Below, piece by piece: positions 1,699 through 49,866 of a stretch of 64,000 nt of DNA (positions are counted from its first letter, which is position 1; each line of letters starts with the position of its first letter). This DNA comes from Tubulanus polymorphus (lineage: Eukaryota; Animalia; Nemertea). The notes beneath the pieces were generated by a model. It was not told the DNA's origin and ran no database searches. It saw only the letters and a list, made by a program, of their open reading frames with translations. Where the stretch lies: NCBI RefSeq assembly GCF_964204645.1, contig NC_134030.1, forward strand, positions 17,630,210 to 17,694,209. Reading direction: 5' to 3'. The position numbers were made by a program, and so were the translations under genes.

Positions 1699-1968
1699 CA
1701 GACAGTTCACTAGCTATCAGACAGTTCACTAGCTTTCAGACAGTTCACTAGCTGTCACACAGTTCACTAGCTATCAGACAGTTCATTAGCTGTCAGACAA
1801 TTCACTAGCTGTCAGACAGTTCACTAGCTATCAGACAGTTCACTAGCTGTCAGACAGTTCACTAGCTATCAGACAGTTCACTAGCTATCAGACAGTTCAC
1901 TAGCTGTCAGACAGTTCACTAGCTGTCAGACAGTTCCCCTAGCTGTCAGACAGTTCACTAGCTTTCAG
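1699..1968. repeat. 19-bp minisatellite (CAGACAGTTCACTAGCTRT)n, ~14 copies
   Basis: Direct tandem repeats read from the sequence. Confidence 0.95.
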
Positions 1969-3377: not shown

Positions 3378-3531
3378 GTGTTTTGAAACAGGCCCTCCGC
3401 TGGAGAACTATGAGTGTATTGAAACAGGCCCTCCGCTGGAGAACCATGAGTATTGAAACAGGCCCTCCGCTGGAGAACCATGAGTATTGAAATAGGCCCT
3501 CCGCTGGAGAACCATGAGTATTGAAACAGGC
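3378..3531. repeat. ~34-bp minisatellite (TGAGTATTGAAACAGGCCCTCCGCTGGAGAACCA)n, ~4.5 copies
   Basis: Direct tandem repeats; these explain ORFs 3286..3561 and 3368..3571. Confidence 0.9.
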
Positions 3532-3966
3532 TACCTGAGATACCCTGTACCCGTGGAGCACAACGGTCCAAACTAAAATGCAGTTAGAAAAATCTATTCA
3601 CCTCACAGAAGGAGAGAACTTCCGCTTTATATGCGATTTTTATATCTGAATTGCTATCGACTGATATTGCAGCTGTAAAATGAATACTCCCAAATCATGC
3701 TGATATAAATTCTATAGGAGGCCCGGAATCAAATGGGATTTTGGATTTGAAAAACTATCTAACTGCAGGGCGAATCGAGACAGGAACACAAGGAGCACAC
3801 GTGTTCACGTCGAAATTTATCCCGTACCCTTTTGAAAATACAGCCCCCAATAAGACAGCAATCCGCAGCGCGAGATTTAGCTTATATACCCTAAATGTCC
3901 CTCAAATGCCTAAAAATCGTGTGAGAATCTGACAATTATAGAAATGAAAAATAGAATCCGAAATGT

Positions 3967-4308
3967 TTCCTTGAGCTAGTGTAGTTTATTCAACGTTTCG
4001 ACTATATCCTAATAGTCATCTTCAGGAATACTGTATTCCTTGAGCTAGTGTAGTTTATTCAACGTTTCGACTATATCCTAATTGTCATCTTCAGGAATAC
4101 TGTATTCCTTGAGCTAGTGTAGTTAATTCAACGTTTCGACTAATCCTAATAGTCATCCTCGGGAATACTGTATTCCTTGAGCTAGTGTAGTCTATTCAGC
4201 GTTTCCACTATATCCTAATAGTCATCTTCAGGAATACTGTATTCCTTGAGCTAGTGTAGTTTATTTAACGTTTCGACTATATCCTAATAGTCATCTTCAG
4301 GAATACTG
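3967..4308 (-). ncRNA. Tandem array of 5 x ~69-bp units, each carrying a minimal type I hammerhead ribozyme (Penelope-type)
   Basis: Minus-strand unit reads TATTC-CTGAAGA-T-GACTAT-TAGGAT-ATAGTC-GAAA-CG-TT-GAATA-AA. This gives the CUGANGA core, a 6-bp stem II, GAAA, a palindromic AACGTT in place of stem III, a 5-bp stem I and a downstream AATAAA. Copy 1 (3987-4030) is perfect; the others have substitutions. Confidence 0.8.
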
Positions 4309-9499: not shown

Positions 9500-12400
9500 A
9501 AAATAAAACATATATTCCACTGATTAAGTTGACAAAAATATTTTGATTTTAGAATGTAGCGAACACGTCCATCGTATTTTGGAATTCTTCTTTTGGAAAC
9601 TCTAGCTGCATCCTGTTGTTGATGACTTTTGGAGGGCTTAAATCATAGATGATGTTTTCTGTGGGGTGCTCCTCGATGATGTCTACATCCGGCCATATAA
9701 ATGAATTTTTAGTTTCACATGGTTGGTTAAGAAACTGTACCATCACTACGTCTCCAAAGGCAAGAATCTCTAAGATCTGAAAACAGATTTCATGAATTGG
9801 GTAAGCCATTGAATGCATTTGTTCTCAGAACTAATTTCAAGGAATCGTACCACTCCAAAATAAAGATGTTTTCGTCCACGATTGCCCTCTTGGTATAGCG
9901 CTATGTAGACACCCTCACTGTTAAAAGAAAACGACCATTTTCAAGTCAGTATACAAACAAGATCTAAACTACAATTCTACAAGCCTACCTAATATTTATT
10001 TCTTGTATTTTAGGCATACTTGCTTCAGGAATTTGATCATCATCTTGAGTTTGGTCATCATGGCCCTGAAATGCATGTTTTTCATTGACAAATAATGAAT
10101 CATTGAATTAACATTCTCAAATGGTTTTGTTATCTACTTACTGGAATATTTGATTCCTCTGGTCTCGATGAAATCTGCAAAAAGAGCGTGACAGGAAAAA
10201 TGTAAATAAATGGTACATTAAAACCATAACCTATTTGCAGCACTATTTTAACTTACAGTTGTAGTGAGTCTTTTTTGCCTCTTTTCAATTCTCTCTTGTT
10301 CTTTTTTTTCTTTTAGATTTTGCTTAGCAACCGCATTCGCATAGGCATCGTCAGCAGTAATTATGAAGTATCTCTTCTCTTCACATTTTCTCTTCTTTTT
10401 TGCTAGTGTGACCACAGGGTAATCCAAAACATCGTGATCTGGATCAGCTGATAATGTTTTGAGAATCGAAATGAGATATCTCATATGGAAAAATATTTGT
10501 ATTTAATTCATTCTAAATTCTCTGTTACCTGGGGACGAGTTGTTATCAAAAGGAAATATAGGTGGCGCTTCTGTCTCCGCTGTTAAAAACTGAAAGATAT
10601 ATTTCATAAACATATGTGAATACTCCATTTAGATGTGAATGTAATGTGAGGAAAACAAATCATGAAAAATAAAAGGATATTTGTTGATTGTTCGTCAGCA
10701 CTTGAAAACTGAAATGTAAAATCATTAGGTGTAAGTAACAACAAAGAACACAATAGAACCAATCTGAATCTGTTATTCCAACACAGGTAAAATAATAATA
10801 CTAATTAACAAACAATTAACCTATAATTTTAAGTTTTTTGTTTCACACCTGAGATGGATTTTCACTCGTTGATTGATTCTAGATAGTAATTAAGGTTACA
10901 GGTCATTGCAAGATATTTTAAATGATTTTGTCTATATTTACGTTTTGTATGTTTTAGTGTGAAAAGTCATACCTTATTTGATTCCGACAACGGAACATCA
11001 CTACATGGTGTAGGATCGGCGATCTAGAATACCAATACACATCATTGTATTCAAATAACAACTTGGTAAGATCATATGACCCGGATAGAAAATAACTCAC
11101 ATCAGCAATGACTGTTGCAATTGTAGTTGTAGATGGAAGAAATGCCTCTGGTGGAATTATAGAAGGATCGAATGGATAAATCCCGCACGACCTGAATCCA
11201 TTAATTAAGTGTTCAGGCGAGATACTCTGCCAAGTAGGTGTAAAGATTTCAAAAAAACAACTCTTGTTGATGATCCGACCTGGATTTTGATTTGAGAAGT
11301 TTTGACAGAGGCGATTCCATGAGGACTTTAATGTCTTAAAACACGATCTAAAAAAGAACACATACCGCCGCGGTAAACATTAAATTAGATTGTATAAATC
11401 AATAAGGGCAAAAAGACCTACCGATCTAGAGGCTGTAGCCAGTGTGATGTGAGCTCTGGGAGTTCAACTAATTTGATGTTATTTTCGCGAGCCAGTTCCA
11501 CCAATTCTAAGAAATTGTGGCTATTATGACCATCTGATATCAAAACTTGCGGGCGAACTCGGCCGATTGCTGGTAAAAAGCTCTTCTTAAACCACAGTGT
11601 TGCGATTCCCTATTATGATAAAAATTATGGAAAGTTAGATAGATTAAAAGTAAGTTGTTGATTCCTGGTTATGTATAGGCCTATTATTTGTAACCTGCTT
11701 TGTCCATCCACTTTCAGAAACAGACACTGTAGTTCCGGGAGGTGCTCGATTGGAATCAACAGACTGCAGTGATGCTGCCGTTTTCCCTTTAAAAATTACA
11801 TTCGGTGGTAGCATCTGCCCTGCCGCATTACCACAAGCCATGATGGTAATAGTTTCACGATTGCCACTAATGCGTGCCTGCACATATCTGCTTCCCTTTC
11901 TGTGAATGAAACACAATTCTTAGTCTTATTATCAAACCTTTATGAGATATCTGTTTTATACTTTCAGAGGACTTGGTGTGCATTTTATGACAAATTTACA
12001 GTTGTATTTGATTCAAAGGGTCATTGATTCCCCACTTTTTTTACATTCATACACTGATGCCTGATGGCAGCAGTGCCTTCGGGCTTGCGCAGTGTTACTG
12101 ACGGATTTCTGGATTTAAACCCAGCCCAAAACTGATCACTTGGGACAATCTAAAAGAAAAGACTGCATTATTAAATTCATGCTTTCAAATAACAAATCCT
12201 AATGATGTTGGCTAATTGACAAGCACCTCCTTGAACGGTTTTCCACGTTTCAACGCAAGATCTCCAGCATATTTCAGGAAATTATTCTTTGAGAATCCGT
12301 ATCAGCCCTGTTTTTGGCAAAATCGGCGAGCTTTTTCTCATCTGCCTCCGTTAAATGTGTCGGCCGGCCTAGTTTTGAATCTGCCGGTATTTTGCCACTA

Positions 12401-26926: not shown

Positions 26927-29900
26927 TTGAGACGTCAGAATATTTTTGAAGGGCTTACTAATGATGCGCGTGACAGAATAAAGTTTGTACGTGCACACCG
27001 TGTCGGAAAATATAGTGCTGGAACTGTGCGACCGATTGTCGTTAAGTTCCACTTTTACCCTGATAGGGAAGAAATTCGTGGAAAATCCGCACTTCTGAAA
27101 TCTCGTGGTCTTAGAATCGCCCAACAAGTCCCTAAAGAAATCCGAGAACGTAGAAAAGCATACAACAACGTTGTGGAGGACCAATGTATACTTGGGTCCC
27201 CCTCCCGATCCGGATGCTATTAATATGCAATTACTTGAGTTCGATCATGGGGTACGAAAATTACTTGAAGACCATGATATTGACACAACTAGATCATCTC
27301 AAGATGATACTGTTAGACGAGATATTAGAGGCATGAATATGATAAACATGTGCATAGGTTGTAATTTGTTAATCTTAAACGGTAGGGCATTTCAGGATAA
27401 ATCGGTTGGAAAGTTTACGTGTCATCAACCAGGTGGCAAAAGTGTGGTCGATTATGTATTAGCCGATTTTAACATGATTGATATACTGTCTGACTTCCAC
27501 GTGTCTGACGAATTACCTTTCTCTGACCACGCGATAATTTCTTTTAGTTTGCAGGCTAGGATTGATAAACACGATAATACCTCAAATACAAATTTTACGT
27601 CCCATAACAAAACTACTTGTCACAAATTCAAATGGCGTAAAGAAAGGGAAGTTGAATTTGCTCAGTATATGCATTCAGATGATACCCAATCTTACCTCAA
27701 CGATATTATAAACAATGCAATTAATAGAGAACATAATGAGTTTTCAATTAACGAATTGGTTAACGATTTTTCAAAATTCTTCCAGTCTTGCGGTCGAAAA
27801 AGTTCATGGTTCATTTCAAAATTCGAGGAACATGAATAACAATAGGCCTATATCATGGTATGACGGCTCGTGCAGAAAAGCACGAAACGTGTTCAGCCGG
27901 GCAGTGCATCGACACAGATTATACCCGAATGATTTAAACCGATTTCTGGTCAAAGAAGCACGGGATAAATACAAGTCCACTATAAATAGTGCTAAAGCAT
28001 TGTATGATGAACGTATGCTGGATGACCTGCTGAAAGCGCTAGATTCAAATAACCACAGAGATCTATGGTCCAAATTTAAAGGGCCCAATGAATACGTTGA
28101 TACTCAACTAAGCATTGATGACTTATATGAGCATTTTAAAAGTGTCTCGTATGAAGATCGCCCTCCACTGGATGTTGATATCGACGTATCTGATCACATA
28201 CTTGATCAGCAAATCACATTGGAGGAGGTTAATAGAGCATTTAAAATGCTAAAAAGAAATAAATCTGCAGGAATAGATGGTATAAAAGGCGAGGTATTTA
28301 TCGCTGGTGGTAACCCAATTATTACTCAACTTACTATTCTTTTTAATATTATATTAGATAGTGGACGCTAACCCGAATCATGGAGCACTGGCTATATTGT
28401 TCCACTACACAAGGGTGGTTCAAACAATTCAGCAAATAATTACAGGGGCATAACCATCTTGTCGGTATTTGGCAAACTCTTCTCAATAATTTTGAATACT
28501 AGATTAACTTCATGGTGTGAGGCATACTCTGTTCTATCGGAGGCGCAAGCTGGCTTTAGGCCAACTTATAGTACAACGGACCAAATATTTGTATTGAATT
28601 CGGTTATAAATCACCTGTTAAACAAGAATTGCAAATTATACGCGGCCTTCATTGATTTTTCGAAGGCGTTTGATGTGGTTGACCGCTCGTTATTACTACA
28701 ACAACTCTCTGTGAGTGGGATCTCGGGTAAAATATTATGTATTATCAAATCTATGTATATGTCCAGAAAATCATGTGTAAGATATCAAAACCATTACTCT
28801 GATTATTTTATTTGTGACACAGGGGTCAGATTCTCCTGACTCTCTTCAAGTGGCGCTCGATAATGTTTATATCTATTGTGAAACCAAACATATTAAGATA
28901 AATTATGATAAAACAAAGATAGTTATATTTAGGAAATCTGCTAACGCTCGGTTATATAAATGGACAATTAACGGTCGAGTACTTGAATGTGTGAGTCATT
29001 TCAAATACCTAGGCTTGGTATTTAATTTTAATGGAAAATTTACTCAAACTATAGACTCGCTAGCAAATAATGGAAAAGCAGCGTATTTCACATTTTGCAA
29101 ATATCTTTTATGCTACACAAACATAACAACACGCTTAGCACTCAAGTTCTTTAACGCCATGGTTGTACCGGTCTTAAACTATGGATGTCAAATATGGGGG
29201 TTTCAGGTAGAGAAGAAATTGGAGCGCATTGTTCTTAAATTCTATAAATCTCTACTGGGTGTAAAACAGACCACACCGGACTTTTTTGTCTATGGGGAAT
29301 TAGGTGAATATCCACTGTTTATTAACCAGCGACTACAGGTACTGAAATACTGGCTAAAGATCATTAAAACAAAACCTGAAAAATTTTCAAAAAGAGTTTA
29401 TGATTTCATGTTCACCGTATGTCAAGGTTCACTTCACATAGTAAATTGGGCATCAAAAGTTAGGGATCTGTTGAATAGCCTGGGATATGGCGAATTCTGG
29501 ATTAATCAGAGGGTTGAAAACGAATTGTGGTTTATCCGTTCAGTCGAACAACGTATGAAAGATATTTATTGTCAAAATTGGTTTAATGCAATATCTACGT
29601 CTAATAAAGCGTTATACTATCGGGACTATAAAATGACTATCATGTATGAGCCATATCTGGACATGTCAAAATTCATTAGAACTACTATAGCAAGATTTAG
29701 GTGTTCAAGTCATGATTTAAAAGTGGAGACTGGTAGATGGACGAGACCTCCATTACCGTATGCTCACCGCACATGCTTCCGGTGTAATATTAATGCAGTT
29801 GAAGACGAATATCATATCGTTTTGATATGTCCCTTTTATGATAACCTTAGTTTAGAATATATCAACTCGAGATACTGGAACAACCCAAATACAGCGAAAT

Positions 29901-30100
29901 TTTCTATTCTAATGCGTAATAACAATGATTTTTCAAACCTTTCGAAATTCCTTAAGAAAGTTTATATACTCAGGCAACCTTAACTTATTATGTAATCCAC
30001 ATACATGTATCAATGTTTGTTCTATGTTATATTGTTTCCCGCCATTTATGCTTGTATTTCGATTTTTGTCATAAAAGTTTATAACTTTGGCAATAAATAC
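26927..30100 (+). mobile_element. 5'-truncated, internally deleted non-LTR retrotransposon (RTE-X / L2-CR1-group-like)
   Basis: ORF1 C-terminus (RAHRVG..RPIVVKF), APE C-half (LILNGR..FTC..SVVDY..SDH), RT N-part (KSAGIDGI, NYRGITI, QAGFR, FIDFSKAFD, GVR), KYLG and a CCHC zinc finger (RTCFRC..EDEYHIVLIC). AATAAA is followed by (TA)n. Confidence 0.9.
27105..29983 (+). pseudogene. LINE ORF2 (endonuclease/reverse transcriptase), frameshifted; the YADD-containing segment is deleted
   Basis: Four overlapping ORF pieces; GVR joins directly to post-YADD sequence at ~28830. Confidence 0.85.
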
Positions 30101-34105: not shown

Positions 34106-34262
34106 CATTCTGGGGTTTTTACCGCTAACCTTTAGCAATGCACTGTAATGAACAATTTACTTTGTTTTGCTAAATTAACTACAGTAATTAGGAAATAGCG
34201 TTTTCAGATCGGAGGTCGAGGGTCGACCACTCATCACCACAAGTAATTTTTTTTCCTAATAA

Positions 34263-37200
34263 ATGGGGGAGAATGAACACCAGCCAGAAAATAATAATGT
34301 TAATAAAAATCAATATTATTGCCAATATTGTAAGAAAATACATCGATAAATCCCAAAAATCACGACATGAAAAAACTGCAAATCATATAAAAAATGTAAT
34401 AGATTTTGAAACTCCAGAAAATTCCAATGAAAGAAAAGAACGATTAGAAAATATGAATGTGGATGAAATAAAATGTGAAGTTTGTAATGAATTTATAGTA
34501 AAAAAGAATTATAATAGACATCTCGAATCACAAAAACACCATCAAAATTTGAGTAATAATGTTTTAGGAAAAGATTATTTTGATGATAAACCTCAAAAAG
34601 TAAAAAAAAAAAAACTTCAAAAACTAAATCCATTTCAAATAAACCTTACATGGAAAATGTTAGAAATTATATTGATTCACTAGAAATAAAAGATACAATT
34701 GAAATTTTAGAAACATTACATAGTAAAATTGGTCCTGCAGCTATTATATTTAGATTAGAAGATTATAGAAGATTATAGTACATTTAATGAAATAATAGAA
34801 AAAATACTAGATTTGATAACAGATGTTGAATATCCAAAAATTAGTATCTCTGGGAAAGTAAGTTTTATAAAAGTCAGAAGAAAAAATGAATTATAATATT
34901 CAAACACACTCTGAAGAAATAATTTCATAAACACAAATAAAAGAGAAGTTAGAAAAAATATTTAATGAATTTAAACGTCATATTGAAGAAAGATATTTTG
35001 AGGGTTCTGGCTTAACATTGAATGAAATTATATATTTAGATTTAAATGTTTATGATACAAAAAGGAATAAAACATCAAAAAGTAATAAAATGTTTAAAGA
35101 TAATTCAAACTTTACAACAGAAAAGGAGGATATTAAAGGATCATCTTATATTAAATTACCATTTACAATAAAAGCAGTAATAAATGTTCAAAATGAAGAT
35201 AACAAATGTTTTCTGTGGGCAATTATAAGTTGCTTACATCCAACTAAGGAAAATGTTTGTAGAATAACAGATTATCGGAAATATGAAACATCATATAAAA
35301 TTGATCAATATCCAGTAACTATAAAAATGATTCCTAAAATAGAAAAAATTAATAATTTAAAAATAAATGTATTCGAATTAATGCAATTACCAAAGACAAA
35401 AGGTGAAAATATTAAAGATTATACATTGGAAACTTTATATTTAACAGAATATTATGATGATGAAAATGCTATAGATTTGTTATTTTACAAAAAAGATGAA
35501 AATGAACATTATATGTGGTTAAAACAAATTGATCTATTCTTTAGAACAGAAAGTGATTTTAACAGTCATAAAATTTATCTATGTAGAAAATGTTTATCTA
35601 AATTTAGAACTGAGAATGCGTTACTAAAACAAAAAGAATTATGCGATAATAAAGATTTTTGCAAATTAATAATGCCAACAGAAAAAGATTATAAACTGAA
35701 ATTTACTAATCATAAATCTAAAATTATTGTTCCATTTGTAATTTATGGGGATTTTGAATCGTTGAATAAAGAATTAACTGATCAAGATAGAAAAGAAATA
35801 TATAACAAAAAGCAATTATTAAAATCAATGGATAAAGGAAATGAATTAAATGAAGACACAACACAAGATAATTATAAATACAATTTAAAAAGTTCATCAA
35901 AGAGCTGCTGCTTATGGAATTTACATCAAATCAAATTATCCCGAATTATATGAAAGTCAATATATTTCTTTTAGAGGTGAAGATGTAGTTAATGATTTTT
36001 GTAATAAAATAATTGAATTAGAAAGTGATTTTGCAAAATTATTAAACAAAAATAAAAGAATAGTTATGACAAAAGAAGATGAAATTGATTTTAATTATGC
36101 GACTCATTGTTGTTATTGTGAAAAACGTTTATTATTCATTTGATAAAAAAGTTAGAGATCATGATCATTTAAATTCAAAATATCGTGGAGCTGCTCATGA
36201 AGATTGTAATTTACAAGCTAAAAAAGTAAATTTCGTTCCAATATCATTTCTTAATTTATCAGGCTATGATACCCATCTATTTATAAAACAATTATCGGGA
36301 AAATTGGGCGCAATTAATCAAGAAATAGAAGATTATAATGCTATGGATGGTGTAAATGTAAGAAAATATGATTTTAAACTATTAGCTAAAACATCCGAAA
36401 ATTATATTTCATTTCAATTTGGTTGCATTAGATTTTTAGATTCTTATAGATTTCTAGCAAGTTCATTAGATAATTTATCAAAAAGTTTAGTTGATAATGA
36501 TTTTATAATAACTCGACATTATTACCCAAATGAACAAGATTTTAAATTATTGAGATATAAAGGCGCAATTCCTTATTCATTTTATAAAACACATGATGAT
36601 TTTAATGTAACAGAATTATTAAAAGAACAATTTTATGATCAATTAAAAGAGGAGGATGTGAAAGACGAAGTGTTTAATAGAACATTAAATATTTGGAACC
36701 ATTTTAAGATGAAAAATCATGGTGAATTAGTTGATTTATATTTAAGATCAGATGTTATGATATTGGCTGACATATTTGAAAAATTTAGAGAAGTTAATTT
36801 GAATCATTTTAATGTTGATCCTTGTTATTGCTACTCTAGTCCTGGTTTAACCTGGCAATGTGGTTTAAAAATATACAAATGTAGAATTAGATTTATTAAA
36901 AGAACCAGACATGGTTTTATTATTTGAAAAATCAATTAGAGGTGGAATTAGTGGTGTTATGGGAGGTATTTATGGTATTTTAAAGCAAATGATGAATATA
37001 AATTATTATATATTGACACCAATAATTTATATGGTTGGGCAATGATGCAACCTCAACCATATAAAAATCTTATATTAACAGAAGTTGAAAATGATGATAA
37101 AACTGATTGGGAAAGCGCAATTATGAGTTTAAAAGATGAAGCACCAATTGGTTATTTCTTTGTAGTTGATTTAGAATATCCTGAAAATATAAAGTTTAAA

Positions 37201-39326
37201 ACAAGAAACTTACCTTATTGCCCAGAACATTTAACTGTAGATGATAGTTATTTAAGTGAATACCTGAAGAAAAAAAAACCGAAAGATCATGTTTTTACAG
37301 AAAAATTAATACTTACTCAAAATAATAAATACAATTATATCGTTCATTATAGAATGTTAAAATTTTATCTAAAACAAGGAATGAAATTAAAGAAAGTACA
37401 TAGATATATTGAATTTAATCAATCGAAGTGGTTAGAAAAATATATAGATTTCAATACTCAACAGAGAACAATATCAAAAACAGATTTTGAAAAAGATTTC
37501 TTCAAATTAATGAATAATAGTTTTTATGGTAAAACATGTGAAAATATTAGAAATAGAAATGATATTGAATTAGTAAATAATTCTGAAAGATTAAGACATT
37601 TACAATCAAGTCCTAGACATTTAGGAAATAAAAGATCTGAAGATTATTTAACAGCAGTTAAATTAAAAAGAACGTCAATGAAATTTAATAAACCTATATT
37701 CATTGGTTCAACTGTTTTAGAAGTATCAAAATTATTAATGTATGATCTTTATTATAATGTTTTACAACCACTTTTTGGGGAAACGCATATTGAAATATTA
37801 TATTTTGATTCTGTAACAGCTGACACCCCAATATCATTAAAATGTAATAATAAAATATTAATTAGAAGAATTTCAGAAATAATTCCAAAACAAAATGAAT
37901 GTTATATTTCATATGGTGAAAAAGAATTAATACAAATAAATGAATTAATGGATGTTTGGACAAGAAATGGATGGAAAAAATTAAAGAATATTATTAGGCA
38001 TAAAACAAATAAGAAAATCCATAGAGTTAGAACTAAATTAGGGTTTGTAGATGTTACAGAAGATCATAGTTTAATTAAACGAAATGGTAATGAAATAAAA
38101 CCAACTGATATAAAAATTGGAGATGAATTATTACATAAAAGATTTTTCCAAAGAATGAATCATATGTCATTTGATGAAATTGTTGATAATATTTATAATA
38201 TAAAATCCGAAACATTAGAAGAAAAAGAATATTTTATCAAAGGATTTTTCATGGGTGATGGTTCAGCAGGTGTGTATAATTATGTTTGGGGTAATAAATA
38301 TAATAGTTGGTATATATGCAATCAAGACTTAAAATTATTAGAAAGAAATTCTGTGAAGAAGTTTATTCTCATAAAACATTTAAAATCATAGATGTTATGA
38401 AATCATCAGCAGTTTATAGAATACATGTAAATAATCCTAATGATTTTGCTATAAAATGTAATGATGAATTCTATATTCATGCAATAGTGAAAAGTAATAC
38501 TTCAACAAAAGAAAAGATAGTTCCAGGTTATGTATTAAATGCAAAAAATAATTTGAGAAAGTGGTTCTTCATTGGATTCTATGCCGCAGATGGCACTAAA
38601 AAATTTACAAAGGATAAAAAGATAACCTTTGCACAGAAAGGACAAGTTGCTATATCAGGATTAAATATATTATGCAGTTCATTAGGATTTAATATGAATA
38701 TAGAATTAATTAAATCTAAACCAAATTGTTTTAATTTAAGGCATGTAGAAAAAGAATTAACAGAAGAAGTTAAAGATTTATTTGAAATATATAACCCATC
38801 AGATTATGTTTATGATTTATCAACTGAAGATGGTACATTCAACTGTGGATTTCCATTAATTGCAAAAAATACTGACAGTTACATACTAAAAATCAAGACA
38901 AATGACATAACAAAAGACTTAAAAACATTAAAACATCATTTTGATTTTAGCAATTATCCCAAAGATCATGAACTATTTAGCAATGATAATAAAAATATTC
39001 CTGGTAAATTTTAAGATGAATTAGGGGATGTTGAAATGATTGAATTTGTTGGGATAAGAAGTAAAATGTATAGTTATAGAACAAAAGATCATGAAGCTAA
39101 AAAGTTAAAAGGAATAACAAAACATGTGGTTGATAAACATATAGAATTTCAAGATTATATAAAGTGTTTATATAACTCAATTGTAATGAAACATAAAATG
39201 AATTGTTTAAGATCAGAAAATCACGAGATGTATATTAATGAAGTTGAAAAAACTAGTTTGAATCCATTTGATGATAAAAGGCATATTTTAGATGATGGTA
39301 TAAAAACATTACCTTATGGCCATTAA
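34263..39326 (+). pseudogene. Protein-primed family B DNA polymerase (pPolB) with N-terminal zinc fingers, an HNH-like insert and an intein; several frameshifts and stops
   Basis: INVQNEDNKCFLWAI; ExoI VIYGDFES; ExoII NLSGYDTHLFIK; FLDSYRFL; ExoIII YLRSDV; IRGG; motif A YIDTNNLYGWAM; motif B KLMNNSFYGKT; motif C YFD|TDS split by the intein; EFVGIRSKMY; KLKGI; FDDKR. Confidence 0.93.
37810..38870 (+). mobile_element. Full-length intein with LAGLIDADG homing endonuclease in pPolB motif C (pol-c site); one frameshift at ~38345
   Basis: N-extein YFD (37801-37809). Block A SVTADTP; block B DVTEDHSL; LAGLIDADG motifs FIKGFFMGDGS (38233) and FFIGFYAADGT (38565); block F YVYDLSTEDGTF; block G LIAKN. 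C-extein TDS (38871). Confidence 0.93.
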
Positions 39327-39601
39327 AACAGAAAATCAATATCATCATACTCGAAATCACTATTGGCTTCTTCATTTTCATTTAATTGTTCTTGTATAAT
39401 TCGTTTAGGTTCTTCCATTTCATTTTTCTCATTTAAATAACGTGTTATATTGTGCCACATTTCATCTCGCTCTCTTTGTTTCTTTTTGTTTGTTAATTCA
39501 TCAAATGGAATTATAATATCGATGTTTAAATAATTTACAATCTTATTTAAAAAGAATTCACAATTAATTGAATCTGTTATTCTATTTTCCAAATGATACA
39601 T
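39323..39601 (-). CDS. Hypothetical viral protein (acidic C-terminus)
   Basis: Intact ORF; its start overlaps the upstream stop (TAATG). Confidence 0.55.
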   Translation of the reverse strand: MYHLENRITDSINCEFFLNKIVNYLNIDIIIPFDELTNKKKQRERDEMWHNITRYLNEKNEMEEPKRIIQEQLNENEEANSDFEYDDIDFLF

Positions 39602-40371
39602 TAATATTTGTTTGAATGTTTTTTTTTAATATTTTCCATATCTTCTTCTGTTAATTTAGGTTTTTCATAATAATCGTTAAATAATAAATATAAATACATT
39701 TTCTTTTGTTTTGTGTTAAATGTTGATGGAATAATTGTTTTTATTATATCTTTTTTAGTTATTTCACCATTTTTATTTTCTATCATTTTCATTTTTTCAA
39801 GCCATTGCATATATTCTGGTGTATGATCTTCTATAGAAAATATTTTAAAAATTTCATCTAGATAATTTAATTTTGGTTCTATGAGAAAATCTCTAATTTT
39901 TTCTTCACCCCATAAATTCCTTTGCCATCCACAATCAACACAAAATATCTCAGTACCCTCTTGTCTTAAGGTCGCATAATAACATTGTGGGCATTTTTGT
40001 TTATAATTTCTTGGTAATAGATCTTCATTAAGCTCTTGGTATTTACTTACGTTTTCTATATGTTTTATTGTTCTATTATGTAGATTTGAATTACTAGCTG
40101 TAATAATCAATTTACAATATTTACAATAATATGTTTTTCTTGTTAATTCATTATATTGTTTTTCTAACTTTTCAACTGTTTCTTTATTATCTGGTAACGT
40201 TTTCTCATATTCTATTTTTTCTAATAAACTATTTTTTCTTTCATTGAATTCAGTTTCAAATTTATTTGAAATTTTATCTATATGTATTTTACGAAATTGA
40301 TGATTCTCCCAAGCTTCTATATTTTCAGGACTAAATTTCATTCGACAAGGCTCGCAGAAATGATCTTTCAT
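39601..40371 (-). CDS. Viral multi-zinc-finger protein (two C2H2 H-x5-H fingers plus a C4 ribbon)
   Basis: CEPC..H-x5-H, CKYC..H-x5-H, CPQC..CVDC. Confidence 0.7.
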   Translation of the reverse strand: MKDHFCEPCRMKFSPENIEAWENHQFRKIHIDKISNKFETEFNERKNSLLEKIEYEKTLPDNKETVEKLEKQYNELTRKTYYCKYCKLIITASNSNLHNRTIKHIENVSKYQELNEDLLPRNYKQKCPQCYYATLRQEGTEIFCVDCGWQRNLWGEEKIRDFLIEPKLNYLDEIFKIFSIEDHTPEYMQWLEKMKMIENKNGEITKKDIIKTIIPSTFNTKQKKMYLYLLFNDYYEKPKLTEEDMENIKKKHSNKY

Positions 40372-40652
40372 ATTATCCTTGTCATAGAATAAGAAAGGTC
40401 TTTTCCAAATAATTTCAGGTTCAACTTCAACAGAATTACTATTACTTTCATTACTATCAACATTAGCCGTTGCGCCATTAATTTTACACTTCTCTGAATG
40501 TTTTTAACATAATTTCTTGAGAACAATTTATTACATTTTGGGCAGTTTATTTTAGGGGGTTTATAATTTTCATCATGTTTTTTCATATGTCGAGCCATAT
40601 TACTTTTTCTTAGAAGTTCACCACAAATTTCGCATGCTATCTTCTCATCCAT
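40368..40652 (-). CDS. Viral C2H2 zinc-finger protein (probably frameshifted)
   Basis: CEICGELLRKSNMARHMKKH, then CPKC; TAAATG start. Confidence 0.7.
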   Translation of the reverse strand: MDEKIACEICGELLRKSNMARHMKKHDENYKPPKINCPKCNKLFSRNYVKNIQRSVKLMAQRLMLIVMKVIVILLKLNLKLFGKDLSYSMTRII

Positions 40653-40720
40653 TTATTAAGGAAAAATTTTATTGAAATTAATTTTTAGTGATGAGCGGTA
40701 ATTTTTTCATGTTATAAATA

Positions 40721-41497
40721 ATGGTAGAATTAAAAGAATAAGAATACAGAATATTTGTTGATTCTAGAAAACTTACAAATTATAGATCACATGATTTACT
40801 AGTTCAATTAGATAGAGAATTTAAGAATTGTGTTGATTTAAAATGAGTAAATATAAGTTTATGTAATTCTTCTTATAATATAACAGCTAAAACTTTTGAA
40901 CATAGAGACTTTTTAATTCATATTGGAGACTTTTTAATTCATATTGGAAATAAAAATAAATGGTTTCATCTATTTTTAAAACCAGGGTTATATAATTTAG
41001 AAACATTAGCCCAAGATATTAATCGGAAAGCAGGATTAAAACTTGAAAGTGAAGATAAATTTTCAATTAGATTTATAAAAAGTGATTGTTCTGATAAAAT
41101 TAAAATAAAGTTAGCCAATGAACAAAATAAATTCATGGTAAACAAGCCAATAGCTAAAATGTTAGGAATTAAACCGCGTATTGTTACTGGAAACGTAGAA
41201 GGTAGCTCAAATTAAATACCTTTTACACACTTTTATATTTATTGCAATTTAATTGACCCAACAAAAACATTTGAAGCAACTAAAGATACAATTTGTAATT
41301 CTAGTATACTAAATATTTTACCATTAAAAAATATTAAACAATTTGGAACGCAAATAAATTATAATTTAGCTGAATGAAATTTTAAACCTTGTATTCTTCA
41401 ATTTAATAATTTTAAATTAGAAATAAGAAATCATAATGGATATTTAATTGATTTGAATAACTTTCCTGTAATTTATGAATTAGTTATAGGATGTTAA
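40721..41497 (+). pseudogene. Minor capsid protein (penton, single jelly-roll)-like pseudogene; not in the ORF track
   Basis: Manual translation gives LKPGLYNLETL..FYIYCNLID..ILNILP..LEIRNHNGYLIDLNNFPVIYEL, matching Polinton penton-type motifs. Several stops and a ~22-bp tandem duplication near 40905-40950. Confidence 0.65.
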
Positions 41498-41500
41498 GAG

Positions 41501-41523
41501 TAATTTTTTTCACTATATAAATG
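41501..41523 (+). promoter_or_regulatory. Representative copy of the element-wide TAATTTTTT-N6/7-TAAATG promoter-like motif
   Basis: TAATTTTTTTCACTATATAAATG. Related copies precede starts at 34263, 40652(-), 40721, 41878, 42124, 42567, 43009, 44268, 45741 and 48966. Confidence 0.75.
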
Positions 41524-41874
41524 AATATAACTGTTGGACCGAGTATACGTTTTGGGTTTGATTTTAAACGTGAGAAAGAAATGAAATTTAACATTACTGA
41601 TGTAATTATACATATTAAAAATATTGCATTTTCTAATGAAAAAACATTAGAGTATGAAACAACAATAGATAAAGAAACTTTAAATGTAGAAAAGATTACT
41701 AATTTAATTAGACAATCTTTAAGATTTTATGAATTAGATGAAGATTTTATCATCGATGATATTAAAAAAATAATAATTGAAATATACACAAATGAAACTA
41801 GTAATGAAATAAATGTTGAAATAATTATAAATAAGATAACTAAATATTTTGAAGATAGTAATTTTTTTGATTAA
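41521..41874 (+). CDS. Hypothetical viral protein
   Basis: Intact ORF with the conserved upstream motif. Confidence 0.6.
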   Translation: MNITVGPSIRFGFDFKREKEMKFNITDVIIHIKNIAFSNEKTLEYETTIDKETLNVEKITNLIRQSLRFYELDEDFIIDDIKKIIIEIYTNETSNEINVEIIINKITKYFEDSNFFD

Positions 41875-41877
41875 TAA

Positions 41878-42099
41878 ATGAGTGATAATAAGTGGATAAT
41901 AACTGGATTATATGATGGAGCATTACTATCAGTTGGAACTGTTGGTTATTCAATGGTATTAAAAAAAGTATTTAAAATGGGAAGTATTAATGTTGATAGA
42001 TTTGATATAAATGATATCTTAAAATTAACATTAGCAGTTACTTTATCTAATTTAACTATTGATTATTTAGAAAAACAAAAATATATTCCTCCCATATAA
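41878..42099 (+). CDS. Small hydrophobic viral protein
   Basis: 73 aa, two hydrophobic segments, conserved upstream motif. Confidence 0.6.
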   Translation: MSDNKWIITGLYDGALLSVGTVGYSMVLKKVFKMGSINVDRFDINDILKLTLAVTLSNLTIDYLEKQKYIPPI

Positions 42100-42123
42100 A
42101 TGCGTAATTATTTTACTAAATAA

Positions 42124-42540
42124 ATGGCTTCTGCAGTTATAACTATTATAGGATCGGCAATTGTTAACGCTTTAGCATTTACTGGTGGTGGATATTTATT
42201 TAAGCATATTGATAAAAATGGATCATTAACAGAACAAAAAAGATATAACTTAGCAGTAGAAAAATACAATAAAGCAGCAGAAGAATATAGAGAAAAGAGG
42301 CAAAACTATATGGATTATATTAACAAGGAATTATATGATCAGAAGATTTCACATAGAGATTTTCAATCAGTTGATGATGCAATGAGTTTATATAACGCGG
42401 TAACAAATAAAGAAAAATTACATATATACAAACCTAAATTATCAGATTATTCTACCCCAATTAAAGAACAACAGAAATATGAATTATTTGGATTTTAGGC
42501 GGAACTGTTATTGTTATATTTGTAGCGTATAGATTTACTA
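42124..42540 (+). CDS. Viral protein with N-terminal hydrophobic helix and coiled coil (C-terminus frameshifted)
   Basis: MASAVITIIGSAIVNALAFTGGGYLF..; conserved upstream motif. Confidence 0.6.
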
Positions 42541-42566
42541 ATTAGTAATTTTTTTTTGCAAAATAA

Positions 42567-42992
42567 ATGGATGATAATATTGATATTATTCCTCATGATA
42601 TAAATAAAACTAAATTAAAAATGTATTTAGAAAAACAAATATTAGAATTTGAAAGTGACTTAAAGATAAAGAAGAAAAAATATTTAAAAAGTAAAATTAT
42701 ATATTATTTGATTATCAGTGGTTCAGTTACAATTAGTTCTGTAATAACATTTCTAGCAATATTCAGCCCATTAACACCTTTAGCTATATCAATTGGTGTA
42801 TTAGGATTAAGTTCAAGTGTTTTAACCGGAATAATTTCAAAATTAAATATAAAAAGTAATAAAGAAAAAATTTAAACTAATATAAAAGAAATTAATAAAT
42901 TGAAGAATACACTAGATTATATAATAAGTTTAAATGGTCATATAACAGTTGAAGAACAAGATAAATTATTAAAAGAATTAGTTAATTATTAA
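42567..42992 (+). pseudogene. Two-TM viral membrane protein (premature stop at 42873)
   Basis: Two hydrophobic helices; the frame continues past the stop to TAA at 42990. Confidence 0.55.
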
Positions 42993-43008
42993 TTTTTCTA
43001 TTATATAA

Positions 43009-44251
43009 ATGGTAGATAGTTTTCCAAAGGCTTTCCAATATAATAAATCAATTAAATATAATATTCCTGCAATAGATTTTAATAAAGATATTACATATAG
43101 AAATGAAGTTTTAGATTCATTAACTAATTTAGAAATTTATGTTACTGAAACTAAAATGAAATAAATCTAATATGAAGTATTGGCAGAACCAATTAAATTT
43201 TGCTGTTTATTGCGCTACAACAGGATGTGGAATAAGTTGGAATGATCATTTAAACAAACCAAGTTTACCATTGATGTTATCACATTTTAGATTTCATACT
43301 TATTTTCAAATAAAATTAATATTAGATGAATTAGAATGTCCTTTACCAGGTTCAAAATATTTTAAAGAATTGAATAATAATATTAATTTTTCTAAGTTTT
43401 ATAAAATATGTAATGAATTTAATATTAATTCAAATAAAGATTTTAGAGCAAAAATTGGAACAATGGGTAGATTAGGAATATTATATACTAAAGAATTTGG
43501 AAAAATAATGACAAATTCAGATATAAGAACACCAAATTGGAATGAATTACCAAAATATTATAATAATATACAACAACAAAACAATAATGGTTGGGTTAAT
43601 TTCATTTTAGAAAATAGTGAAGGTTTTACTAAAGCTGGAATACAAAGAATAAATCAATCTATTAGAACTTATTTGATATGTATTTTAGGTGCGCAAGTTG
43701 AAACAAGATCACCAATATTTGGAAATGATAACACTTCATTTGATGCGCAGAAATAATTCAAAGTATTATTTGAAGATTCAATTCATAATGATAAAAATAG
43801 ATCGATTCCAGAAAACATTTAAAGATATCAAAATTATCTAGATAAATCACATATTAGATTAAATTATTGTATAGGCCCTAATATATTAATTATTTCTAAT
43901 GATTTAGTATTAAAGATGGGAAATATAATTGGTTATAATAATCTAATTAAAACTGCAACAATAAATAATTCATTTGGATTAAATGATATAAATAAAAAGA
44001 TTATTACTGCTCCAAAATTAATGGAAGGTGAAAAAAATAAAAAACATATTCAATCAACAGAAACTAAAACTAAGAATATTAAATTAAATAATGATTCTAA
44101 ACCGGATTATAATACATCAAAAAATATTAAAACTGATAATATTCAACATGATATTAAAACTGATAATGATAATAAATTCCATGAAAATACTAAATTAGCT
44201 TTAACTTGTATAGGAATTGTTATAGGAGGAATATTATATTTTAAATTTTAA
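43009..44251 (+). pseudogene. Conserved-looking viral protein of unknown function with C-terminal TM anchor
   Basis: Fragments WQNQLNFAVYCATTGCGIS.., FRFHTYFQ, SIRTYLICILGAQ and a terminal LALTCIGIVIGGILYF. Contains stops and a frameshift. Confidence 0.6.
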
Positions 44252-44267
44252 TTTTTTTATTATACAA

Positions 44268-45724
44268 ATGGATGTAGAAGGTGGAGAAGATATTGGAATA
44301 GATAATTTTGATGAACCTGGCATAACTGATGAACAACAACCTGATTTTAGTGAAACAAGTTTTAATGACGGTAATGAGCCAGAATATAATAATAATTTAA
44401 ATATGCCTGATTATATTAAAAATGCTGAATCACAAATAGATCCTGAAAATGTAATTCCAGATTTAGTAAAACAAGATTTAGATAATTTAAACAAAATACC
44501 TAAATTAAAACGTATAATTGAAAATTCTGAATTTATTATAAATGATGAAGCCGTTGGACCTTTGGCAGATGAATTAAAATTTTTAGATAATGGTAAATGG
44601 TATTATCATTTTTAAGGTGATTATTATATTGATATCACTTATAAACGTGAAAACAAAATATTAGCAAAATCAACTTTAGAAAAATTAGAACCAGGTAGAA
44701 TTAAAAGAATTAGTAATAGTAATGTAATAACTGATGTTATAAAACAAGAATTAACTGTTAATGATATAGACGTATTTAAACAAAAAATTAATGAATTATT
44801 TGAAAAAAATCAAAAGTAAATCAGAAACGGAAACAATTCCTAAAGAAGTTAATAATTCCAAAACTAGTAAACTTAAATCAAATAAAGTTCCAATTGAAAA
44901 ACTTTTACCGAATGGATTAATTGATGCAACAGATCAACAATTAGAAGATTTAAATAATATATTTTCTGTTGAAGCAATTAGAGAAATTAAAAGTATAAGA
45001 CTTGCATCTGATAAAATTGCGCATGATAAAAGTATGAGATATTAAAATTAGAACTTTAGAAAAAGAATTAACTGATAAAAATAAAGAAATAGAACAATTA
45101 AAGTCTGATTTAGATCATCAAGTAATTGATGAAATAGAATATAGGCACAAAGAATTACGATTAGAAAAAGAAATTAATAATTTAAAAGATAATTTAGAAG
45201 TAGAGAATGAAGAAATTAAATTATTATTAAAATCATATGATTATAATATTAATAGATTAAAAGTTATTTTTAAAGATTTGTTGATAAAACCAAATTCTGA
45301 AATATCATTGAAAGATAGAATAAAATTATTATCTAACTTAGAAGGAATCACAATTCTTTCAATTCTAACAGCTGTAACTATGTTATTTACAACAATTGGT
45401 TTAGCAATATCAAATTCATTAAAATCTACACCTACTCCCAATAAACCAGATAAACCCCCGAATGATAATAGTTCTATTCCAGATAAAGTTAAAGATGGTT
45501 TAAAGAAATTAGCAAAATATTTATGGGAACTATCTAAAAAATCTGCTGCAGCTTTACCAGGAATTATTGCATCAATTGTTAGTTTTATATTGAAATCTGC
45601 AGGTAATATTCTTAACTTTGCTGCTGAACATATTATTTTATTTTGAATTACAGTTGTAAGTGCTATTATTTTTGGGTTAGTGAATATGATATCAAAAAGA
45701 TATCAAGAAAAAATAAATAATTAA
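44268..45724 (+). pseudogene. Large viral protein: acidic N-terminus, coiled coil, C-terminal hydrophobic/amphipathic helices
   Basis: ORF pieces 44268..44615, 44791..45045 and 45278..45646 form one broken frame that ends at 45724. Confidence 0.6.
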
Positions 45725-45740
45725 TTTTTTTGTTAAATAA

Positions 45741-46994
45741 ATGAGTGGGAGTTATATAAGTCCTTCTAATATTTCTAGAATATCTAATGCTATTAAAGCA
45801 GAAAGATCACATCATATAATTACTCATAATCCTTCAAATATTAATCCCGATGAAACTTTATATGTTAGAATTCCTAGATTAACAAAAAAATACTCTTTAT
45901 GTTCCAAATAGTATTTATTTATCAGCCGATATAAAAGTATCTGGTCATGATAATAATTATGTTGTCGATAATGTTGGAAGATATTTGATTAAAAAATTAA
46001 CTATAATGATTGGTCCAGAAACAGTTTTCTCATTAGATGATTATAATTTATTCATGCATTATAAAGATTTATGGTTAACTAAATGAAATAGAAATAATAT
46101 GATATTTCAAGGCATTCAATCGGAAAACCATAATAAATTAAGATCAGGAGCTAATGACGCAATAGTAACCCGTGCCGCAGATAATTTGATTAAAATGATT
46201 TATGAGAGCAAATATAAGTTCCATTAGACTTTGAATTGATAAATAATAATGTACCTTTATATAAATATGTAATTCAAGAAGATATGATATTTGAGATAAC
46301 ATTTGCTCCTGCAAATGCAATTGTATTATCTAGCGTTGTTAAAGATATGAGTTATAAATTATCGAATATATGTTTAGAATATGACACAGTAACTAATGAA
46401 AATATTGCTAGCACAATTCAAACTCAATACAATCAAGGATTTTCATTACTATATGATTATATTGATAAATTTAAAACTGTAACTATTAATGCAAATGATG
46501 AAATAATTAATGAGAATATTAACTTCCCAAGAAGATCTATTAAAGGTATATTAATATTTTTTACCATTGCAACATATTCTAATGGCGCAATAAAGGTAGA
46601 TAATTATTATAATCCTGAAATAGCAAAAGTAGAAATAACAATTGAAGGCATAGCAAATAAAATATTTTGTCAAGGAATGAGAATGATAGATCAATGGCCA
46701 GAAATTAGAAAACATTTTATGAATGAAAAAGTAAAATCATCTGAAAATTGTAATATTAATCAAATTGATTATTATGCCGGTAATAAATATGCATTATGGT
46801 TAGATTTTAGAACAACAGAGGATAATTCATTACATGGTTCTGGAAAAAAACTACAGAACACTAAAGATGGAATACAATTATTCATGAAAAAGAAAAAAAG
46901 AAAAGGAAGCTTAAATTTTAAATTGCACATTTATATTATATCTGACGCACAATTAAATATTGTAAATTCACAATTAGATAGTATTCAATATTAG
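45741..46994 (+). pseudogene. Major capsid protein (double jelly-roll)-like, disrupted
   Basis: ~415-codon beta-rich frame (ITHNPSNINPDETLYVRIPRL..YKLSNICLEYDTV..YALWLDFRT..LHGSG). Size and position fit a Polinton MCP; the fold cannot be verified without a profile search. Confidence 0.65.
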
Positions 46995-47024
46995 AAATAT
47001 AAAGTTAAAATTAACGATATATAA

Positions 47025-48152
47025 ATGTGTGGTACAAAAACTCCTAATACTAAAGAACAATATTTAAGAACTTTATATTACAACCCTGAGAGTTCGGTTG
47101 CTTATTCTTCAACCAAAAATATATGGCGTCAAGTAAAACAAGATAAATTAGATAAGATAATCCCACAAAATGTAGTTAAATATAAAGATATAAATGAATT
47201 TATGTTAGAACAACCAACATATACTACACATAAAAAAATTGTTAGAAAATATAAAACTCGTAAAACTATGGTAAGTTATGTAGATCAACAGTTGCAAGGA
47301 GATTTAATTGATATGAAAAATGTTAAGAAAGATAATGATGATTATTGGTGTGATATTGAATATAATTGATATTTTTAGTCGTTATGTATGGAGCTTCCCA
47401 CTTTATAGAAAAGATGCTGCACAAATGTTTTAAGAAAATTTCTTTCGGATGATAAACTAAAACCAGAAAAAATACAATTTGATGATGGAAAAGAATTTGA
47501 TAATTCACTTGTTCATGAACTCTTAGAAAATCATAATATTAAATATTTTTCAACAAAATCGGATAAAAAAGCAGCAGTTGTTGAACGATTTAATAGAACA
47601 TTAAGAACAAGAATGTGGAAATATTTTACAGCAAATAATACTTTTAAATGGATTGATGTTTTACCAAAATTGATAGAAGGATATAATAATTCTTATCATT
47701 CTTCTATTGGAATGAAACCTATTGATGCTAGAAAACCTGAAAATGCTGAAATTGTTTGGAATAAATTATATGGAGCATTTCTTGTAGATGATTTTGGTGA
47801 ACCTAAATTTAAAGTTGGTCAAAATGTTAGAATTTCTAGGTATAGAAAGATATTTGATAAAGGATACGATCGAAATTTTACTGGAGAAATATATAAAATA
47901 AAAAAGGTAATAACAACAAAACCATATGTCTATAAATTAGAAGATTTAGATGGTGAAGAAATTGATGGCTACTTTTATGAAGAAGAATTGAGTTTAAGTA
48001 CTGAAAATCTAGAACAAGAATATAAAATTGAAAAAGTATTAAAAACAAAAACTATTAAAAGAAAAAAATATTCTTTAGTAAAATGGGTTGGATGGCCAGA
48101 TAAATTCAATGAATGGATAATATCAAGTAAAATTAAAAAAATATATAAATGA
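47025..48152 (+). pseudogene. Retroviral-like (rve) integrase with C-terminal chromodomain
   Basis: YYNPES..; QGDLIDM; FDDGKEF; KAAVVERFNRTLR; YNNSYHSSIGMKP; KFKVGQNVRI; chromodomain EYKIEKVL..VKWVGWPDKFNEWI. Frameshifts near 47350-47460. Confidence 0.92.
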
Positions 48153-48757
48153 ATAAGGAATTATTTATATTTGAGACTCATAATATGTTCATTTCTGGCG
48201 TAACAAATTGTGGAAAAACTTATTTTATATTAAATTTATTAGAAACTGTTTATAAAAACTATTTTGATAATATAGTATTATTTTGTCCAATATATGAATT
48301 TAATCAAACTTATGATAGAAATATTACTAGAAATAATAAATTTATTATATTAGATCCTAAAACAGTAAAAGAAAATTTAGATAATTGTATTAAAATAGCA
48401 ATAGATATTTATAAAGGATCAAATACATTATTCATTATAGATGATTGCGCAAATTTACATGATTCAAAAGTGAGAGAAAGTGAGTTATGTTATCTGACTT
48501 TCTCTGGGAGACATTTTGGGATAACAACATGGGTTTTAAATCAAAAATATAATTCAATTGTTAAAGACTTTAGAGAAAACATTAGATTTCTAGTTTTATT
48601 CTACAATAAAGATAAAAAATTGATGAAAAATGCACTTGAGGAAAATGATATTATTCCACATGATTAACATAATGAATATATGGATAAATTGAAAAATATT
48701 AAAAGATCAAAATTACTATTTAGATTACAACACCCATTTAAATATGAATTTATTTAA
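48149..48757 (+). pseudogene. A32/FtsK-like DNA packaging ATPase (premature stop at 48665)
   Basis: Walker A SGVTNCGKT, Walker B FIIDD, SGRHFGIT and the downstream NQ motif. Confidence 0.88.
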
Positions 48758-48965
48758 ATTCAACAGGTTTGTTAATCTATTACATATTTAGTTACATTCT
48801 AGTTGAATTCTAGTTATTAGTAGTTGGAACAAAAATCAAATAAAATTCAACAAGAAATAAACAAAAACAACAATATTTCAACTAGCTTGTTAATCTAGTT
48901 GAATTCTAGTTACATTCTAGTTGAATTCTAGTTGCAACAACACAACTAATTTGTTTGTTATATAA

Positions 48966-49556
48966 ATGGTGGGTGAAAAGAAAATAAAATCTAAAAATGG
49001 TGATGTTCCAATTGAAAAAACATTAGATGATTTAGGAATAACAGAAACAAAATTAATTCCAGATGATGGTGCTTTAAATAATGTTACAACAAATAATAAT
49101 TATGAATATTATCTTTATTGTAAACATCAATTAGAAATATTAATAGCATCTGGAAAATGTAAAAATTTTATCGGTAAAAATTTAACTTATAAAGAATTAG
49201 ATACAATGAAATCACATGAAATTATTAGATTATTTAAGATTTATGAAACCGCGAGAACAGCTAGAATTAATGACGCGATATCAGAAAATGTAGTTAAAGG
49301 TTATAGTAAATTATGTAATTATATGCTGCCAATTCAAGATGAAAATAGATTATATGCTGATTTAAAAAATGATTATTTAGTTATGACCGAATTAAATAAA
49401 TGGATTGGATATTTATCATTTCAATTAGGTGGATTTATGACATTATTATCAACTGGAGCTACAACATTTTCAAATATTGAAAGTAAAAATATTTCTGTAA
49501 TAAATGAACAAGGTGGAAGAAGTGAAGAAAAAACCGAGATCACAGAAACAAATTGA
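48966..49556 (+). CDS. Hypothetical viral protein
   Basis: Intact 196-aa ORF with the conserved upstream motif. Confidence 0.6.
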   Translation: MVGEKKIKSKNGDVPIEKTLDDLGITETKLIPDDGALNNVTTNNNYEYYLYCKHQLEILIASGKCKNFIGKNLTYKELDTMKSHEIIRLFKIYETARTARINDAISENVVKGYSKLCNYMLPIQDENRLYADLKNDYLVMTELNKWIGYLSFQLGGFMTLLSTGATTFSNIESKNISVINEQGGRSEEKTEITETN

Positions 49557-49866
49557 ATGGTCTCGGCAATTAGGAATTAAATCACAAGAATATAAAAAAG
49601 CTGTAAAAGAAAAAATAAGTAATAAAAATGTTAATAAAAATGGTGAAAATATTGTTATTTCTACTCCTTCTAATGATAGAATATTTGATAAATGTCTATA
49701 TTTTACAGTTGGATTTGTAATTGTATTCATTTTGATTGGGTGTAATTGGTATAAGAAATCAAATAAAATTCATGATATTAATAATTCTGAAACAACTGCT
49801 ATTAAAAATGAAAATACTTCTGAAATTCCAAAATTGATAATAAAAAAAAATGGATTAATTTTTTAG
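49504..49866 (+). CDS. Basic viral protein with one TM segment
   Basis: KKKPRSQKQIEWSRQLG.. plus hydrophobic LYFTVGFVIVFILIG; TAAATG start. Confidence 0.55.
   Translation: MNKVEEVKKKPRSQKQIEWSRQLGIKSQEYKKAVKEKISNKNVNKNGENIVISTPSNDRIFDKCLYFTVGFVIVFILIGCNWYKKSNKIHDINNSETTAIKNENTSEIPKLIIKKNGLIF

Follow-up and report, generated by a model that had tools for sequence, protein, structure and literature searches.

Late promoters of vaccinia virus share the consensus TAAAT(G) and conserve a T at the 10th nucleotide (nt) upstream (PMC11980589), and TAAAT is the site at which slippage makes poly(A) leaders (PMC6211774). A promoter motif shared with the helper has been described for Gezel-14T, Sputnik, mavirus and zamilon (10.1101/2022.07.28.501842; PMC11464507), and Polinton-like viruses (PLVs) have been found in entomopoxvirus occlusion bodies (Barth 2024, PMC11296320). 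Here we analyze a degraded Polinton-like element from the nemertean Tubulanus polymorphus, located at 34150..49872 (ends approximate, no strand assigned) of a 64,000-nt stretch of contig NC_134030.1, which we refer to as the window. Most genes of this element start at TAAATG, with a patch of T upstream, and this combination is probably a poxvirus-type late promoter: the integrated element would be transcribed, in the manner of a virophage, by the RNA polymerase and late factors of a large DNA virus that replicates in the cytoplasm of the same cell and is most likely of pox type.

The motif is like the late promoters of vaccinia and mpox viruses in having TAAAT followed by a G that overlaps the start codon, and a patch of T that includes a conserved T some 10 nt upstream (PMC11980589; PMC6211774); it differs in that T peaks at the 9th and 11th nt, that its carrier is an integrating element without a detected RNA polymerase, that replication genes are included and that activity is predicted from sequence. 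With virophages and the PLV Gezel-14T the element shares the plan of a small genome with a double jelly-roll (DJR) capsid and a promoter motif in common with a large DNA virus, but those systems have Mimiviridae motifs, protist hosts and a known helper, whereas here the motif is of pox type, the host is likely an animal and the helper is predicted only. A Lavidaviridae capsid was not found: the family gave no Pfam match to the Sputnik major capsid protein (locus L064 does match), and the fold ranks the chlorella virus PBCV-1 and iridovirus above mavirus. The PLVs associated with entomopoxviruses likewise tie Polinton-like viruses to poxviruses of animals; by their description they encode a protease but lack an rve integrase (PMC11296320), whereas in the window element an integrase is present and no protease was detected.

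Maverick/Polinton groups 1 and 2 (Polintoviricetes, adintoviruses) resemble the element in pPolB, rve integrase, A32 ATPase, DJR capsid, a length of about 16 kb and many copies; unlike them, the element has several small transmembrane (TM) genes and no protease that we found, and Maverick-type controls lack the motif. The single comparison of its capsid with one group-2-like (Maverick-type) hexon gave no detectable similarity (E=0.5). One account of Maverick-Polintons states that no virion has been seen for them (10.64898/2026.06.19.733378). The yeast cytoplasmic virus-like elements pGKL also have pPolB and a TAAAN initiator, and make poly(A) leaders by slippage, but as described they lack a capsid and an integrase and supply RNA polymerase and capping enzyme themselves (PMC6211774). 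We found no report of pox-type promoters in Polintons in the open-access literature; the word promoter is absent from the main text of Barth 2024, Starrett 2021, Stephens 2024, Yutin 2015, Krupovic 2024, two 2026 preprints and the egovirus preprint, and in that of Barth 2024 motif, upstream and transcription do not occur either.

Start-site motif in the window and its relatives

We count 14 genes in the element, with starts mostly anchored by tblastn of intact relatives; most of these starts coincide with called ATGs or differ by a few codons, the least well anchored being 34263 and 44268. The sequence-only reading had put the total at 16 genes, which does not stand, and had listed 14 gene starts, all of which (14/14) lie where it placed them: 12 are TAAATG (all 12 of them ATAAATG), and the other two are the near variants that it described, TAAATA-ATG at 40721 and CAAATG at 44268. 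Its statement that most starts have TAATTTTTT upstream was too strong, because TAATTTTT(T/C) occurs at 7/14, but a T5 run is present at 9/14 and AATTT at 10/14. The short intergenic gaps that it noted are there as well: genes mostly overlap or lie 3-30 nt apart, the exceptions being a gap of about 200 nt in front of 48966 and the 68 nt that separate the divergent starts 40652 and 40721.

Among the ATGs of the element, TAAATG is found at 12/14 starts and at 36/634 others (p=5.5e-13). Internal ATGs, the control suggested along with the sequence-only reading, are biased when they are in frame, since no in-frame Met can come directly after TAA, and we therefore added antisense and shuffle controls; TAAATG is present at 13/218 antisense ATGs (p=1.1e-11) and at 7.3% of first ATGs after a stop in 200 shuffles (p=2e-12). 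T5 runs precede 9/14 starts, compared with 43/634 other ATGs, and among TAAATG sites alone they distinguish starts (7/12) from non-starts (2/36; p=3e-4).

The motif was then counted in related elements. Of 118 ATPase homologs, 65 were aligned with the window ATPase, giving 61 metagenome loci; L062 (a bacterial bin) was omitted, its context being unrelated. Open reading frames (ORFs) were called blind to the motif, as the first ATG after a stop, and the counts cover families in at least three loci and starts with 40 nt upstream, with the near-duplicates L006, L023, L029, L035, L046 and L052 dropped. The motif is conserved in the relatives: TAAATG stands at 155/172 core-gene starts, comprising 37/42 in the window's group (74/1632 background ATGs) and 118/130 in the distant group (135/3308 background ATGs). 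Relatives with the motif span GC contents of 0.20-0.45, their ATPases are 41-83% identical and their gene order is altered. When each of the 21 family-by-clade groups is given a single vote, 19, 15 and 19 of them have a majority of T at the 9th, 10th and 11th nt upstream of TAAAT, the patch as a whole spanning the 9th-12th nt. A matrix trained on the distant clade scores TAAATG sites of the window higher when they are true starts than when they are not (p=2.2e-5). Several of the 17 starts that are not TAAATG belong to broken genes; where the ATG is not fused to the motif, TAAAT ends at most 6 nt from the start in 6/17, compared with 203/5466. TAAAT is thus kept near the ATG even when unfused, indicating that TAAAT is the conserved unit. 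The motif is real, family-wide and specific.

Base composition deserves attention here, since the element is an AT-rich island (GC 0.24, compared with about 0.35 in the flanks) within repeat-rich DNA, and 12/12 window motifs include AATAAA or TATAAA. The motif could on that account be an ordinary signal of RNA polymerase II (Pol II), an upstream AATAAA or a TATA box, or else chance. In the distant clade, however, AATAAA is present at only 22/130 starts, on which ground we rejected a poly(A) signal as the general cause, and TATAAA at 9/130; a TATA box at the ATG would put the start of transcription inside the ORF; and the controls for composition miss the observed enrichment by many orders of magnitude. 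Chance, AT bias and a TATA box were rejected on these enrichment and composition results, and an explanation of this kind is almost certainly wrong.

The tiny gaps between genes would also suit a translational signal, either TAA-ATG stop-start coupling on a polycistronic RNA or an unusual start context, and in 15/155 motifs the upstream stop codon does supply the TAA. The other 140 do not coincide with an upstream stop, as had been remarked for several window genes, and 69/155 motifs belong to divergent genes (57 of those 69 overlap the opposite ORF, some as CAT-TTAA-ATG); these two counts led us to reject stop-start coupling as a general cause. Kozak context was rejected in the same capacity, since a purine stands at -3 in only 8/130 starts of the distant group (4/42 in the window's group), the usual base being T, a poor Kozak base. 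Neither the fixed T patch nor the TAAAT-Nx-ATG variants are predicted by a signal in translation, which we consider very unlikely.

A predicted late promoter and its putative helper

The pox-late-like architecture proposed from the sequence is upheld, in that sequence and spacing match vaccinia, are conserved across the family and are absent from control elements. Three IMG/VR contigs (two of them near-copies) that share the integrase at 39-43%, and which we take to be group-2 Mavericks from their protein motifs, have TAAATG at 0/26 ORFs, and a control virophage with a related pPolB has it at 0/13 ORFs. In locus L066, where the ATPase is a distant one and an rve integrase is fused to a protease-like domain (2740-4251), 7/7 starts are TAAATG, so that the code does not depend on a single virion module. 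We favor transcription by a viral polymerase, and among large DNA viruses a poxvirus is the probable helper. In the mechanism that we envisage, the late complex of the helper would bind the T patch and TAAAT, initiation would take place in the A run of TAAAT and a poly(A) leader would be added, yielding leaderless-template mRNAs; initiation within TAAAT would permit both the 3-30 nt gaps and head-to-head overlaps of genes.

One sub-lineage (L017-L023, L035) has a different signal. TAAATG is present at 0/20 of its starts, and TATA lies within 16 nt of the start at 16/20 (background 64/647), sitting 3-14 nt before the ATG, with a purine at -3 in 15/20. In a tree of 45 ATPases (at least 150 aa) this sub-lineage falls between two TAAATG groups, and the promoter label requires three changes, one of them owed to the decayed L048. 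Such an all-or-none switch per element fits a promoter read by one machine, and the sub-lineage may have switched to a helper with another initiator. The late initiator TATA of African swine fever virus (ASFV), with median 9-nt leaders, resembles the TATA of this sister sub-lineage and not the window motif (PMC7163114); the mimivirus late motif ending RTA[TG]A resembles it too and is not told apart from the ASFV candidate (PMC11464507). This wholesale replacement also bears on whether the motif is a relic, inherited from a cytoplasmic ancestor and no longer working in the lineage. A relic would agree with the window copy being dead, with most genes broken, but it would account neither for the replacement nor for retention of the motif in intact relatives across the ATPase divergence, gene-order changes and GC range given above, and we give it a very small probability.

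A further resemblance to large DNA viruses lies in the gene at 39323..40652 (minus strand, in three pieces), which is preceded by a T-run and TAAATG at 40650..40672 (minus strand) and encodes zinc-finger and putative VLTF3-like parts. The resemblance of this broken gene to VLTF3, a late transcription factor of large DNA viruses, is a weak identification, new here and absent from the sequence-only reading. The piece at 39326-39625 matches positions 106-165 of PF04947 (E=1.5e-4; 21.9 bits, compared with a Pfam cut-off of 25, for a fragment) and retrieved from IMG/VR a giant-virus VLTF3, of which residues 44-160, comprising the zinc ribbon and the 110 residues after it, can be aligned to the adjacent upstream piece at 40008-39664 (28%, E=0.001). 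The two weak matches are collinear on adjacent pieces of the gene. L022 has a weak VLTF3 match and L050 a similar fragment, which alone has no Pfam match. VLTF3 has already been reported in some coral polintoviruses (PMC11131425).

The product of this gene may help to recruit or bias the late complex of the helper. It could also act without any helper, as a private late switch: in the nucleus, a VLTF3-like or zinc-finger protein made by the element would bind the motif and bring in host TBP and Pol II. An element that encodes a VLTF3-like gene, integrates and has reached many copies might work in this way. The VLTF3-like gene itself starts with TAAATG, however, so something else must begin the cycle; Pfam scans of the window and locus proteins gave no match to TBP, TFIIB or VLTF2; and if transcription began within TAAAT, 1-3 templated nt would precede the AUG, which is unusual for a Pol II mRNA. 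We consider the private switch, the main rival reading, unlikely. The same scans gave no match to an RNA polymerase gene, the loci being incomplete.

Several observations weigh against transcription by a helper of pox type. The VLTF3 matches lie below the Pfam cut-off, a search for a close homolog of the gene found none (the search with its middle part was empty), and it was not detected in the other longer loci, L004 and L024 among them, which are incomplete. In one giant-virus contig that is AT-rich, 3/13 starts are TAAATG and two more are TAAAT-ATG, so that the signal need not indicate a poxvirus. Orthologous starts are non-independent and many motifs overlap coding sequence. The tests for loss of Pol II signals are undiscriminating: coding-strand AATAAA gave z=-2.1 and +0.7, compared with -0.6 in a Maverick control, a depletion of T5 runs is seen in that control as well, and tests of TTTTTNT and of 3' ends did not separate the family from controls. 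pPolB and integrase share the late-type start, with no early class visible. Integration needs the nucleus and poxviral transcription is cytoplasmic, and the meeting of an integrated copy with a cytoplasmic polymerase is unaccounted for. Finally, coral polintovirus genes are reported to be expressed in ordinary transcriptomes (PMC11131425), those elements not being established as members of the window element's family.

Gene content, decay and copies

The element has the Polinton hallmarks (pPolB, rve integrase, A32 ATPase and DJR capsid), and the majority of its genes are broken. Apart from the VLTF3-like gene, all genes lie on the plus strand. A T-run and TAAATG (34244..34265), a promoter-like motif, precede pPolB (34263..39326; PF03175, E=4e-8), which has N-terminal zinc fingers and several frameshifts and stops. 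Inside its polymerase motif YxDTDS lies a broken intein with a LAGLIDADG-like endonuclease (37810..38870, borders read off the sequence; TIGR01445 at E=4.6e-6, above cut-off, and PF14528 at E=0.03); homing endonuclease insertions have been mentioned for polinton pPolBs (PMC11161782). In L065 a pPolB-related gene (115-4017) starts with a T-run and TAAAT-AG-ATG.

Downstream of the divergent VLTF3-like gene, the T-run and TAAATA-ATG variant (40698..40723) leads into a broken gene (40721..41497; ortholog at L004:565-1329) that is a candidate minor capsid (penton) gene by size and position only, and which did not significantly match a penton-like ORF from a Maverick. It is followed, each with the motif included in the coordinates, by a 117-aa gene without assigned function (41500..41874, ATG 41521), a small hydrophobic core gene (41858..42099, ATG 41878), a core gene with a hydrophobic N-terminus, broken near its end (42104..42542, ATG 42124), a broken two-TM gene with a weak SLATT-like match (42546..42992, ATG 42567; E=0.014) and a broken, conserved core gene of about 440 aa with a C-terminal TM helix (42989..44251, ATG 43009), the predicted structure of which is uninformative (predicted local distance difference test [pLDDT] 42). 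A T-run and CAAATG variant then precede a broken coiled-coil/TM core gene (44248..45700, ATG 44268).

The broken DJR major capsid gene with its motif occupies 45721..46994 (ATG 45741); an intact ortholog was modeled as a double jelly roll (pLDDT 83), with the capsids of PBCV-1 and iridovirus as best structural matches (E=2e-16). TAAATG without a T-run starts the broken rve integrase with chromodomain (47005..48152, ATG 47025), and TAAATG within the 3' end of the integrase starts the A32-like packaging ATPase (48129..48757, ATG 48149; PF04665, E=9e-13), which is broken near its end. Short direct repeats (48759-48933) lie in the sole long intergenic gap, 3' of the ATPase. The motif and a conserved core gene without assigned function (48946..49556, ATG 48966) follow, and TAAATG within that upstream ORF starts a small gene with a C-terminal TM segment (49484..49866, ATG 49504).

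No adenovirus-type maturation protease was detected in scans of the window and locus proteins, among which several core genes lack assignment. IMG/VR scans with the ATPase, the capsid and the 440-aa gene gave no matches, capsid homologs sought among longer proteins were not found, and PDB sequence searches with the capsid, with the VLTF3 piece and with two of the core families returned nothing informative, nor did PHROGs.

Some relatives show arrangements and genes of their own. In L024-L057 the ATPase and the 440-aa gene are head-to-head, with ORFs overlapping by 13-43 nt and each promoter within the coding sequence of the other, and in L015 and L016 divergent starts are 4 nt apart. The closest long relative, L004, has a deoxynucleoside kinase (10340-10981, E=2e-31) starting with TAAATG, and in L022, a TATA-type element that also has the VLTF3-like gene, a Bcl-2 family gene (2448-2861, E=2e-18) adjoins the capsid gene. 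A cluster of capsid homologs (P0139; 135 members, contigs up to 1 Mb) suggests a eukaryote with many intact copies; one of ATPase homologs (P0063), filed as Bartonella sp. on short contigs, is probably host contamination.

The window copy appears to be one truncated member of a many-copy family, apparently cut at its right end. Reads from another sample under the same species label (1,934 million letters) reach a depth of about 260-820 over the last two genes, only 124/6,994 of the reads placed on the window being at least 99% alike, and near 49872 many reads from other copies depart from the window sequence. The flank of the element is likewise repeated, and no terminal inverted repeats were found within 32.5-52.5 kb. 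Outside the element, the window contains a C-terminal fragment of a RecQ-like helicase (53366-54193) and ORFs at 27225-29983 without a Pfam match.

Implications for animal Polintons

The open question to which these results speak is how the Polintons of animal genomes are transcribed and mobilized, and whether any of them are virophages. We offer as a tentative possibility, on which we would not rely, that a widespread invertebrate Polinton-like family consists of endogenous virophages of poxvirus-type viruses, with pox late promoters on every gene and a VLTF3 of their own, with a helper code that switches between TAAAT and TATA, and with promoters that predict undiscovered large DNA viruses of their hosts. 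A family-wide late promoter of pox type points to unknown helper viruses, and it would extend antiviral elements of the virophage type from protists to animal genomes.

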